Both the position numbers and the translations under genes were made by a program. A DNA stretch of 64,000 nt from an uncultured Kofleriaceae bacterium (GTDB taxonomy: Bacteria > Myxococcota_A > Polyangia > GCA-2747355 > CAZCFB01), in assembly GCA_964497805.1 (NCBI GenBank), contig CAZCFB010000006.1, positions 1,251 through 65,250 of the forward strand. The letters are read 5' to 3'. The notes beneath the pieces were generated by a model. That model saw nothing but the letters and a program-made list of their open reading frames with translations. It was not told the DNA's origin and did no database searches. Position 1 is the first letter of the stretch. Each line of letters starts with the position of its first letter. Shown here one piece after another: positions 488-28,963 of this stretch.

Positions 488-1869
<1,382 letters not shown>

Positions 1870-1871
1870 GA

Positions 1872-1917
1872 GACCGCCTGACATCCGTACTGGTCAAGCC
1901 CGCCGGGCCTGACTGCA
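1872..1917 (+). repeat. 46-bp direct repeat, copy 1 (duplicate of the 5' end of the radical-SAM CDS)
   Basis: gaccgcctgacatccgtactggtcaagcccgccgggcctgactgca matches 2139-2184 at 45 of 46 positions. The single difference (t1910 vs g2177) is synonymous (CCT/CCG Pro) in the shared frame. The offset is 267 nt, a multiple of 3. Confidence 0.95.
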
Positions 1918-1919
1918 TT

Positions 1920-2113
1920 AGCAAGCCAGCCAGGGCGCGAGGCCCCTGCTGGCTTGCTGCGAGCCTTCGGCTCGGCGTGGTTTTTAGCCGGGCGGGGCCC
2001 CGGGGTGGCCGGGCGGGGGGCCCGGCTGCGCCGCCGGGGCCAGGTCTGGCTCGCCTCGTCTTCTCGCCTGGCGGCGCCAGGCTTGGGCCGGGGGCCGCGA
2101 CCGCGCCCCCGGC
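1920..2113 (+). repeat. Structured four-hairpin intergenic repeat module, copy C (expanded version)
   Basis: H1 is agcaagccagc...gctggcttgct (1920-1958). H2 is cgagcc-ttcg-ggctcg (1960-1975), followed by gcgtggttttt. About 80 nt of extra GC-rich hairpin sequence follows. H3 is gcctggcg-g-cgccaggc (2066-2082). H4 is gccggggg-N11-cccccggc (2087-2113). The architecture matches the copies at 26438-26544 and 28815-28923. Confidence 0.8.
1960..1986 (+). terminator. Intrinsic-terminator-like hairpin plus T-run downstream of the two-component operon
   Basis: A 6-bp GC stem with a ttcg loop (cgagcc ttcg ggctcg) is followed within 5 nt by ttttt. A T5 run is rare in this GC-rich DNA. The site lies about 90 nt after the regulator's stop codon. 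Confidence 0.5.
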
Positions 2114-2129
2114 GGGCAGGAGCCTTCTA

Positions 2130-3278
2130 GTGCCGCTCGACCGCCTGACATCCGTACTGGTCAAGCCCGCCGGGCCGGACTGCAACATGTCCTGCGAGTA
2201 CTGCTTCTACCTGGAGAAGGCGGCGCAGTTCGAGGGCGCCGGCCACCGGATGACCGAGGAGGTGCAGCGGGCCATGATCCGCGAGGCCATGCGCGCCGCG
2301 GACGAGCAGGTGATCTTTGTCTGGCAGGGCGGTGAGCCCACGCTCATGGGGCCGGGCTTCTTCGAGCGGGCGGTTGAGCTGCAGATGAAGTTCGGCCGGG
2401 GCAAGACGGTGGGCAACGCCCTGCAGACCAACGGCCTGCTGCTGGATGACCGCTGGGTGCGCCTGTTCAGCCGCTACCAGTTCCTCATCGGCATCTCCAT
2501 CGACGGCCCGAATCGGGTCCACGACCACTACCGCCGGCGCCTGGGCGGGCAGCCGTCTCACGCCCGGGCTGCGGCGGCCACCCGCCGGCTGCTGGGGGAG
2601 GGGGTGGCGGTCAACGCGCTGTCCGTTGTGAACGACCACTCGGTGAAATATCCCCGGGAGATCTACAGCCACCTTCGGGGTCTGGGGCTGGCGCACCTGC
2701 AGTTCATCCCCTGCGTGGAGCCGGCGGCGTTCCGGCCCTCACCCGAGGCGTACGGCGACTTCCTCTGCCAGCTGTTTGATGTCTGGACCCGGGACTTCCG
2801 GGGGGGCGTCCCCGCGGCCACCGTGCGCAACTTCGAGTCCCTGCTCCACCTCTACGCCGGCCTGCCCGCGCCCGAGTGCACGCTCATGGAGAGCTGCGGC
2901 GTGTACCTGGTGGTGGAGCATGACGGGGGCGTCTACCCGTGCGACTTCTATGTGGAGCCGGAGTGGCGGCTGGGGGACGTGAGAAAAGACAGCCTGCTGG
3001 AGCTGCTCAACGGGGAGCGGCAACGCGAGTTCGGCGCGCTAAAGGCCCGGCTGCACCCGCTGTGCGAGGAGTGCTCCTATCTGGGGCGGTGCCTGGGAGG
3101 CTGCACGCGGCACCGGCCGGCGCCGGAGGGGTTGAACCTGTACTGCGAATCCTTCAAGGCGCTCTTTCAGCACGCGGGGGAACGCATGGAGCGCATGGTG
3201 GCGCACATGCGGGAGGATCCTGTTGAGCAGAAGCCAGCGCCGAAGCGGGGGAAACGGAAGCGGCGGAGGAAGAAGTAG
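2130..3278 (+). CDS. Radical SAM/SPASM maturase, anaerobic sulfatase-maturating-enzyme-like
   Basis: The N-terminus LVKPAGPDCNMSCEYCFY carries the CX3CX2C motif, followed by GGEPTL. The C-terminal SPASM-type Cys clusters are CGVYLVVEHDGGVYPCDFYV and CEECSYLGRCLGGC. I place the start at GTG 2130, preceded by caggag 8 nt upstream. The ORF track extends to ATG 1866, but that stretch is the duplicated and inserted segment. Confidence 0.85.
   Translation: MPLDRLTSVLVKPAGPDCNMSCEYCFYLEKAAQFEGAGHRMTEEVQRAMIREAMRAADEQVIFVWQGGEPTLMGPGFFERAVELQMKFGRGKTVGNALQTNGLLLDDRWVRLFSRYQFLIGISIDGPNRVHDHYRRRLGGQPSHARAAAATRRLLGEGVAVNALSVVNDHSVKYPREIYSHLRGLGLAHLQFIPCVEPAAFRPSPEAYGDFLCQLFDVWTRDFRGGVPAATVRNFESLLHLYAGLPAPECTLMESCGVYLVVEHDGGVYPCDFYVEPEWRLGDVRKDSLLELLNGERQREFGALKARLHPLCEECSYLGRCLGGCTRHRPAPEGLNLYCESFKALFQHAGERMERMVAHMREDPVEQKPAPKRGKRKRRRKK
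2139..2184 (+). repeat. 46-bp direct repeat, copy 2 (inside the functional 5' end of the radical-SAM CDS)
   Basis: See copy 1. This copy continues into the intact CNMSCEYC cluster motif. Confidence 0.95.
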
Positions 3279-3301: not shown

Positions 3302-4096
3302 CTACCACTTGCTGCAGAGGCAGGTGGCGTGTCTGAAGCCTTTGCTGCAGCTGGCGCCGTTGCTGTAGCTGCACTTGTTCCCCCCGCTGGTGTCCCAGGC
3401 GCCCATGCACGCGTGCTTCTTGCATAGCTTGCTGCAGGAGGCGGAGTTCCAGGCTCCCTCGTCGTGGTAGAAGCGGCACGTGGTGGCCGTCTCGGCGCAC
3501 AGCTTGTAACCCTTGGTGTCGTTCTGGAACAGCTGAGCGCAGGTGGGCAGGGGGAAGATGTCGGGGGGTCCGGGGACCACGTCCGTGGCTGGCTTCAGGT
3601 CCTTGGGCTTCATGTCCGGCCACGCCTTGACGTCGGGCGCGGGCGCGAAGTCGGGGAAGAGGACCGACTTGTCGGGCTTGGCCATGTCCTTGAACGACTT
3701 GTCCACCGCGGGCCACAGGTCCGGGGGGTCCACCCACTGATCCGGCGTCGATGTCTCGGGCCCCACGGCCAGGTCGGTGGGGGGCGCGTCCTGCGAGGGC
3801 AAGTCAGTGGGGCCCTGGTCGTGTACGGGAAGATCGACCACGGGCAGGTCGTGTACGGGCAGGTCGACCACGGGCAGGTCGTGTACGGGCAGGTCGACCA
3901 CGGGCAGGTCGACCACGGGCAGGTCGTGCACGGGCAGATCGATCTTCGGCAGGTCAGAGCCTGTGTCCGGCGAGTCGGTGCCCTGGTCCTCGGGATACCC
4001 CGCGGTGCCGTAGGGCGCGCCGGAGGTGTCAAAGATGCACCCGCCCAGGAGAGCGAGCAGCATGGCGATGAAGATCAAGCGCAGCATCAGGACCAC
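3302..4096 (-). CDS. Lipoprotein with a (D-L-P-V-H/V) pentapeptide tandem array and a 10-Cys C-terminal domain (function unknown)
   Basis: The signal peptide and lipobox are MVLMLRLIFIAMLLALLGGC. About 9 DLPVx repeats follow. The C-terminal ~85 aa contain 10 Cys (CAQLF...CAETATTC...CSKLCKKHAC...CSYSNGASC...CLC). It is the last gene of the minus-strand unit and converges on the rSAM gene with a 23-nt gap. Confidence 0.7.
   Translation of the reverse strand: MVLMLRLIFIAMLLALLGGCIFDTSGAPYGTAGYPEDQGTDSPDTGSDLPKIDLPVHDLPVVDLPVVDLPVHDLPVVDLPVHDLPVVDLPVHDQGPTDLPSQDAPPTDLAVGPETSTPDQWVDPPDLWPAVDKSFKDMAKPDKSVLFPDFAPAPDVKAWPDMKPKDLKPATDVVPGPPDIFPLPTCAQLFQNDTKGYKLCAETATTCRFYHDEGAWNSASCSKLCKKHACMGAWDTSGGNKCSYSNGASCSKGFRHATCLCSKW
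3818..3952. repeat. 15-bp tandem repeat, 9 units (encodes the DLPVx array)
   Basis: The units alternate gtcgtgtacgggcag and gtcgaccacgggcag, read directly from the sequence. Confidence 0.95.
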
Positions 4097-26395: not shown

Positions 26396-26437
26396 GCCGG
26401 CTATTGTATCAGCCGTGAGATCGGGGCGAATGGAACA

Positions 26438-26544
26438 GCCGGGCATTCGGTGCCCGGCCACAGCCTGGCGAAGCCAGGCGAAAGGACAAGGAGCCGAAGG
26501 CTCAGAGCTGAGGCGGCAGGGCGAAGGCCCTGGCGTCTCAGCTC
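26438..26544 (-). repeat. Structured four-hairpin intergenic repeat module, copy A (compact, 107 nt)
   Basis: Read on the minus strand. H1 is gagctgag-acgc-cagggc-cttc-gccctg-ccgc-ctcagctc. H2 is gagcc-ttcg-gctc followed by ttgtccttt. H3 is gcctggc-ttc-gccaggc, then the spacer tgt. H4 is gccgggca-ccgaa-tgcccggc. H1 overlaps the stop codon of the upstream kinase gene. Confidence 0.85.
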
Positions 26545-28814: not shown

Positions 28815-28923
28815 CAGTGAAGCCCCCGAGGCAGGAGCCCCGGCCGCTTCACTGCGGGCCTTCGGCCCGAATCGTTGTTTCGCCTGGCGCCGCCAGGCTG
28901 TGGCCGGGCGCCGAACGCCCGGC
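28815..28923 (+). repeat. Structured four-hairpin intergenic repeat module, copy B (compact, 109 nt)
   Basis: H1 is cagtgaagc...gcttcactg (9-bp perfect stem). H2 is cgggcc-ttc-ggcccg followed by aatcgttgttt. H3 is gcctggcg-c-cgccaggc, then the spacer tgt. H4 is gccgggcg-ccgaa-cgcccggc. The module ends 40 nt upstream of the folE ATG. Confidence 0.85.
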
Positions 28924-28963
28924 AGATCATTGGAGTTCGCAAGCCACTTGGAGGAGTAGCACC

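Follow-up and report, generated by a model that had tools for sequence, protein, structure and literature searches.

The window analysed here is a stretch of 64,000 nucleotides (nt) from an uncultured Kofleriaceae bacterium (assembly GCA_964497805.1, contig CAZCFB010000006.1, positions 1,251 to 65,250), in which the gene for a sigma-54-dependent response regulator is followed by the gene for an anaerobic sulfatase maturase. The two genes are separated by a hairpin-rich insert that lies between two copies of a 46-nt segment from the 5′ end of the maturase gene. The reading we favor, to which we assign a probability of roughly 55%, is that a lineage-specific duplicative rearrangement split a regulator–maturase pair that was coupled or nearly so. 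Copy 1 of the duplicated segment would then be a relic of the former start, and copy 2 would form the working 5′ end. All features of this junction are on the forward strand.

The direct repeat was defined by repeat search, shuffling, and alignment. Copy 1 (positions 1872–1917) and copy 2 (2139–2184) are identical at 45 of 46 positions. The sole mismatch (T1910 vs G2177) is a synonymous CCT/CCG difference, and the peptide encoded by either copy is DRLTSVLVKPAGPDC. A 38-mer common to both copies occurs exactly twice in the window, with no occurrences expected from 100 shuffles. Repeat identity breaks off sharply at both edges of the 46-mer. Copy 1 terminates one base beyond the first Cys codon of CNMSCEYC, the CX3CX2C radical-SAM motif, and copy 2 runs on into the complete motif. 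The first-pass annotation, made from the letters of the DNA alone, had described the 45/46 match, the synonymous difference, the end of copy 1 at the Cys codon, and an overlap of an ATG with the regulator stop, and all of these descriptions proved accurate.

The regulator (positions 484–1869, 461 amino acids) was identified from the list of open reading frames and from NtrC/AtoC-type matches in NCBIfam, and its best named homologs (60%–69% identity) come from metagenome-assembled genomes of Myxococcota, which gives a hint of where the lineage belongs. Its start overlaps the stop of an upstream histidine-kinase gene (ATGA at 484–487). The same GCATGA sequence that joins kinase and regulator recurs at the regulator's own end (1864–1869), where an ATG at 1866–1868 overlaps the regulator TGA at 1867–1869. 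Copy 1 is in frame with this ATG and is separated from it by a single codon (AGA). To form GCA-TGA the last codon of the regulator must end in A, and third-position A makes up only 2% of codons here. Because of this rare codon ending, the in-frame position of copy 1, and the reuse of GCATGA from the kinase–regulator junction, the ATG is unlikely to be an accident. Most likely, judging from this arrangement, the ATG at 1866 and copy 1 are the relic of a former maturase start for which translational coupling is predicted.

The predicted working start of the maturase gene is the GTG at 2130–2132, which has its own AGGAG at 2118–2122 and a 7-nt spacer and is followed by CCG CTC (Pro-Leu). This start is chosen because it is the one on which gene calls, ortholog lengths, and the family profile agree. 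Gene calls in three other contigs (L014–L016) begin the gene at this GTG, giving a protein of 382 amino acids (2130–3278) that is also present in a collection of 15 billion proteins. The protein matches TIGR03942 with 372.3 bits (curated cutoff 349.45) and the SPASM profile TIGR04085 with 55.7 (cutoff 27). Close orthologs (n = 3) are 379–393 amino acids long, begin M-x(4–5)-LTSVLVKP, and lack any extension. The first-pass claim of an independent GTG with a caggag Shine–Dalgarno sequence is thereby upheld.

The enzyme itself is an ordinary anaerobic sulfatase maturase, and only its 5′ flank is rearranged. Like other members of TIGR03942, it has the CX3CX2C motif, a SPASM domain, a score above the cutoff, and a conserved LTSVLVKPAGPDCN. 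This last segment is kept at the N-terminus of anaerobic sulfatase maturases even in unrelated phyla and in organisms with 32%–60% G+C (L020–L033), where it is usually preceded by M-x(4–7)-(K/R)-P. A degenerate scan of metagenome DNA with the peptide of the 46-mer gave no match from this organism, and LTSVLVKPAGPDC is a widely conserved N-terminus of these enzymes.

Evidence for the ancestral state of the junction comes from related lineages. Searches with the maturase and the regulator, followed by contig look-ups, recovered five of them, and the order kinase, regulator, maturase, and convergent small gene is kept in four of the five. The uninterrupted ATGA version, for which the first-pass annotation had proposed a comparison of orthologous loci, is found in one lineage (L042/L043/L038; regulator 91% and maturase 72% identical; maturase N-terminus MTPLEPLTS). 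In a second (L041/L037; 93% and 73%; MPPDLLTS), the regulator TAA directly abuts the maturase ATG. The closest relative (L035/L036; 95% and 87%; MPRDRLTS) has a 41-nt spacer that begins TGAGAG, as does the sequence in the window. In a fourth lineage (L044; regulator 87%; MPPLSAVLV) two genes lie between regulator and maturase, and the fifth (L045; regulator 86%) has no maturase downstream and is uninformative. A scan of a genome collection yielded only relatives at ≤53% identity from other phyla, which are of no help for the junction.

Neither the hairpin insert nor the 46-nt duplication is present in any of the five related lineages. The comparison indicates that the regulator–maturase junction is ancestrally tight but evolutionarily plastic, and that the insert and the duplication are specific to the lineage of the window. 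The earlier proposal of an ancestral ATGA-coupled start thus gains support from the overlap, the abutting genes, and the 41-nt spacer in relatives, as well as from the rare third-position A.

Other separations of the same two genes were noted in these loci. The spacer of the closest relative is a microsatellite, (GAGAGTT)x6, at L035:2190–2230 and L036:87–127. The intervening genes in L044 (4384–6425) encode a 539-amino-acid LVIVD-repeat protein and a 99-amino-acid AhpC-like protein.

The same locus was examined in further metagenome contigs, which were collected through the identical regulator protein (n = 6), the downstream gene (more), and a maturase fragment (one further). An exact look-up of the maturase gave no contigs from the index, though the 382-amino-acid protein is in the cluster table, and the regulator and the downstream gene were used instead. 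The contigs are from the same organism, and outside the insert their flanks are 100% identical to the window over ∼8 kb. Both 46-mers, with the same T/G difference, are found in L014, L015, and L016/L039. In L015 and L016/L039 the copies are 142 nt apart, so that the repeat period is 188 nt, which is not a multiple of three. L014 carries both copies together with a scaffold gap and 45 unrelated bases. Four partial contigs, two that come in from the regulator side and end in hairpin 3 of the insert (L017 and L018) and two that come in from the maturase side (L034 and L040), agree with L015 and L016/L039. The contigs carrying the duplication derive from several samples and from both JGI and ENA assembly sets. 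The 46-nt duplication at the regulator/maturase junction is therefore real and reproducible across samples and pipelines.

The length of the insert is another matter. In the window, the start-to-start spacing of the copies is 267 nt (3 × 89), and a frame of 470 codons runs open from the ATG at 1866 through the maturase because of an extra 79-nt segment (1975–2053) that lies between GGCTCG repeats (1969–1974 and 2048–2053) and is found only in this assembly. In most assemblies the upstream open reading frame that begins at this ATG has 61 codons, and in the 188-nt allele it ends at a TAG (2128–2130) that overlaps the GTG start (cTAGTG). What had been annotated as an in-frame 267-bp insertion is thus correct for the window but not for most assemblies; both the spacing of 267 nt and the fusion in frame are peculiar to this assembly. 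Within the extra segment are two 21-nt units in tandem and part of the hairpin 2/3 module in inverted orientation, and it is accompanied by five clustered substitutions at 2057–2085, with none in the 8-kb flanks. We read it either as a doublet variant of the REPIN-like kind or as the product of a fold-back or chimeric assembly.

The insert between the 46-mers is 142–221 nt long, non-coding, and 78% G+C, and it folds as a structured sequence (z = −3.2). Its first part is a unique strong hairpin, called hairpin 0 (1920–1958), with 17-nt arms that are 88% complementary. Next comes hairpin 1 of a repeat module (CGAGCCTTCGGCTCG) with a T run (1960–1985), which resembles an intrinsic terminator. The hairpin proper (1960–1974) and its T run confirm the terminator-like structure that had been reported 3′ of copy 1. 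The core of the repeat follows at 2048–2113 (nhmmer E = 2e-10), with hairpin 2 at 2066–2082 and hairpin 3 arms at 2087–2095 and 2105–2113. The last 25 nt (2114–2138) are a unique leader tail that carries the AGGAG, the GTG, and CCG CTC. The family module of ∼78 nt makes up only the middle part of the insert, flanked by 42 nt of unique sequence on the left and 25 nt on the right. No second copy of hairpin 0, the leader tail, the 79-nt segment, or the maturase gene was found in the window.

The module itself is a small dispersed repeat. There are three copies in the 64 kb, all intergenic; repeat search and nhmmer place the other two at 26427–26503 on the reverse strand and at 28854–28927 on the forward strand. 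The layout is GAGCCTTCGGCTC followed by a T-rich tract, then GCCTGGC-N3-GCCAGGC, then GGCCGGG...CCCGGC. The family consensus forms three hairpins with 21 pairs, three of which show compensatory changes among the copies. A search of the whole window against Rfam gave no match at the gathering threshold, and at E ≤ 1 the insert gave one chance miRNA match. No copies of the repeat were seen in the short contigs of the relatives. Each of the three copies in the window lies 17–40 nt upstream of the next gene start and is co-oriented with that gene (a GH13-like gene, a FolE-like gene, and the maturase gene). The copy at 28.9 kb is in a divergent region and cannot terminate a co-directional upstream gene.

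The closest described counterparts are the repetitive extragenic palindromes and bacterial interspersed mosaic elements (REP/BIME) of Enterobacteria, Pseudomonas, and Stenotrophomonas. These are short G+C-rich stem-loops, single or clustered, that are intergenic and lack the signatures of miniature inverted-repeat transposable elements (MITEs), and they stabilize the 3′ ends of transcripts or affect termination between genes of an operon (PMC3184786). The family in the window likewise consists of G+C-rich imperfect palindromes that form stem-loops, with three hairpins per ∼78-nt module and compensatory changes in the stems. REP/BIME clusters vary between strains; here the module content varies between assemblies, for which assembly error is a possible cause. 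In contrast to the known families, the repeat has no sequence relation to any that has been described and no Rfam match. A 46-nt flanking coding duplication is not a known feature of REP/BIME, and here it accompanies only one of the three copies. By sequence and predicted hairpins, the three-hairpin repeat is an undescribed REP-like family in an uncultured and probably myxobacterial lineage.

The favored history would start from a regulator and a maturase that were translationally coupled, or nearly so, as in the relatives. In the present lineage, 142–221 nt consisting of the unique hairpin, REP/BIME-like modules, and a tail with a ribosome-binding site and GTG would have been placed between the genes, with maturase codons 3–18 duplicated in the same process. 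Copy 1, behind the ATG that overlaps the regulator, would now head only a short upstream open reading frame, and copy 2, behind AGGAG and GTG 2130, would be the working 5′ end of a normal 382-amino-acid enzyme. The simplest source of this structure would be one illegitimate event that introduced or enlarged the spacer and copied the 46 nt; candidates are a template switch during replication and a one-sided, homology-anchored integration of DNA bearing a maturase 5′ leader. Simple tandem duplication was considered and rejected, since the intervening 142–221 nt occur only once. A retron and a CRISPR-like origin were likewise rejected, as a reverse transcriptase gene and a repeat-spacer array are both absent.

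If this history is correct, then the expression of the maturase would have been altered as well. The terminator-like hairpin and the other stem-loops would reduce read-through from the regulator operon, or insulate the maturase from it, and would stabilize the 3′ end of that operon; the maturase would have a ribosome-binding site of its own for translation. Some hand-over of ribosomes could still occur in the 188-nt allele, by way of the open reading frame that runs from the ATGA overlap to cTAGTG. Direct repeats of 46 nt that are 142–221 nt apart are expected to undergo deletion at measurable frequency. Those in the window would favor precise deletion of the insert and so yield a coupled gene identical to that in one further contig, L019. 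This 1.5-kb contig has a single 46-mer that is read straight through: It reads GCATGAGA, the 46-mer in its G variant, and AACATGTCCTGCGAG, and has the form of an exact empty or deleted site. Such a form may reflect either a minority allele that truly exists or a collapse during assembly.

Several observations weigh against the favored history. The junctions of the duplication show no informative microhomology that would point to a mechanism. The codons before copy 2 (GTG CCG CTC, giving M-P-L-D) fit the MPxD of the orthologs better than does the M-R-D of copy 1. The ATG of copy 1 has no good Shine–Dalgarno sequence, whereas the starts of coupled orthologs have AGGGAG or GGAGAGGA. Scans for sigma-70 and sigma-54 consensus sequences, the only two types scanned, revealed no promoter in the insert. 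L019 stops 14 nt beyond the repeat, probably at low coverage, and could have been collapsed by the assembler through the 38-nt exact repeat; the 381-amino-acid "empty-site" protein that it implies (MRDRLTS...) was not found in the protein collection. Finally, the insert has been assembled in three ways (the window, the L015 type, and L014 with its gap), which leaves its exact sequence in each genome uncertain.

Some of these observations would be better accommodated if the polarity were reversed. By this unlikely account, the leader with its hairpins and AGGAG-GTG-CCG-CTC came first, as a spacer that has grown, copy 1 was added later by dispersed duplication, and the empty contig reflects a secondary deletion. 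A Pro at position 2 and a start at −5 relative to LTS match L035, L041, and L044, and Pro-Leu matches L042. The 25-nt tail and the 42 nt with hairpin 0 are unique local sequence outside the repeat family, the closest relative already has a spacer with the same first bases, and the ATG of copy 1 lacks a good ribosome-binding site. However, GCA-TGA and the frame of copy 1 would then be due to chance, with a probability of roughly 1 in 100 or less, and there is no simple way to put a 46-nt copy 221 nt upstream in one step. The match of the Pro codon is weak, because CCN codons make up ∼13% at this composition. We favor copy 1 as the relic because the chance probability of its arrangement is below ∼1%, compared with ∼13% for a CCN codon before copy 2.

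The same Pro-Leu codons also qualify the first-pass view that the inserted DNA supplied a new leader. The ribosome-binding site and the GTG are indeed present, but the fit to MPxD means that the tail may be genuine maturase 5′ sequence. In a doubtful third account, two genuine maturase 5′ ends were joined. The leader with GTG-CCG-CTC and its 46-mer would have come from a related strain or a paralog by homology-facilitated illegitimate recombination, or would be the remnant of a shrunken integrative element with an attachment site that had copied the 5′ end of the gene. Such a model covers both the ATGA-coupled, in-frame copy 1 and the ortholog-like MPL before copy 2, and the T/G difference would be a polymorphism between donor and recipient. 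However, more assumptions are required here than in the competing accounts. The window contains no second maturase gene or leader, no allele with the leader and without copy 1 was found among the contigs, and there is no integrase or other gene between the repeats. Integrative elements that rebuild the end of a gene (e14 and phage 21 in icd, tRNA islands) do offer a likeness, as they leave a duplicated gene end with one functional copy and one stub. The insert differs from them in that its 142–221 nt hold no integrase or cargo, only hairpins and a leader; in addition, the 5′ end of the gene is interrupted, and a repeat dispersed in the chromosome makes up part of the insert.

A comparably doubtful idea is that the hairpin cassette and its 46-nt repeats are an unstable, excisable unit, through which cells in the environment switch, by precise deletion between the repeats, from an insulated maturase to one with ATGA coupling to the sigma-54 regulator, or that the cassette is a hairpin element with very long and variable target duplications. 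Under either version L019 would be a real minority allele.

Much less support can be claimed for the first-pass proposal that a structured element inserted itself and duplicated 46 bp of target, that is, for a mobile, non-autonomous element of MITE or REP type with an unusually long target-site duplication. The insert does lie between direct repeats, L019 resembles an empty site, and a segment of the insert is shared with a dispersed family of hairpins. In being small, structured, non-coding, and flanked by direct repeats, the insert also recalls MITEs such as Correia, ERIC, and RPE, and an in-frame gene fusion, which is present in the window assembly, recalls the palindromic elements of Rickettsia. 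Nevertheless, the family module is confined to ∼78 nt in the middle of the insert, and no flanking direct repeats were found at the other two family copies (26.4 kb and 28.9 kb), a point that the first-pass annotation had marked for checking. No terminal inverted repeats pair the ends of the insert, which contains internal hairpins only. At 46 nt, the flanking repeat exceeds the 2–10 nt of MITEs, which carry a short target-site duplication at every copy, and the in-frame state is not conserved. A length of 46 bp is far beyond the target-site duplications known for bacterial transposases, and an origin as a transposase-made duplication is unlikely. REP-type elements have been characterized as free of MITE signatures (PMC3184786).

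It is also very improbable that the genome has a single 46-mer and that the duplication arose by mis-joining at repeats during assembly. The insert is clearly hard to assemble, as its three versions, the scaffold gap, and the contigs that break at hairpin 1 or hairpin 3 attest, and L019 has only one copy. On the other hand, the junctions regulator–copy 1–hairpin 0 and tail–copy 2–maturase recur identically across samples and pipelines, each of them requires reads that cross the 46-mer, and the one-base difference between the copies is consistent across assemblies.

Translation of the entire 470-codon frame as a maturase with an 89-amino-acid N-terminal extension, which the first-pass annotation had offered as an alternative, deserves almost no credence and can be considered refuted as a conserved feature: Although the frame is open in the window, the 188-nt period of L015, L016, and L039 brings the frame of ATG 1866 to a TAG ahead of the maturase; the extension is a low-complexity translation of GC-rich hairpins that is neither conserved in orthologs nor kept in frame, as a protein domain would be; position 2 of the TIGR03942 profile aligns only to residue 97 of the long frame, inside copy 2; and the 470-amino-acid form, unlike the 382-amino-acid one, was not found in the protein collection.

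A few features of the surrounding DNA were also recorded. The convergent gene downstream of the maturase (3302–4087, reverse strand) encodes a 261-amino-acid protein with a signal-like N-terminus, a Cys-rich C-terminus, and no NCBIfam match. Within it, a 15-nt tandem repeat of ∼9 units (3787–3966) encodes DLPV(V/H)-type repeats. Four related lineages (L035, L041, L042/L043; partial in L037) have a conserved counterpart of 256–261 amino acids in the same position after the maturase. In L034, a 1-nt indel at ∼750–880 (window ∼2807) splits the maturase into calls of 264 and 130 amino acids, a split that probably reflects misassembly or a rare frameshift allele.

Taken as a whole, the locus is a fairly ordinary local rearrangement and represents no new class of mobile element, no new protein domain, and no classical transposon footprint. 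For annotation, it serves as a warning: The protein is not the one that the long frame of 470 codons in this assembly would suggest, and the region has been assembled inconsistently. Its biological interest is as a natural example of a tightly coupled operon junction being pulled apart. This junction has been remodeled differently in almost every related lineage, by overlap, abutment, a microsatellite spacer, inserted genes, or a hairpin cassette with a duplicated gene head.

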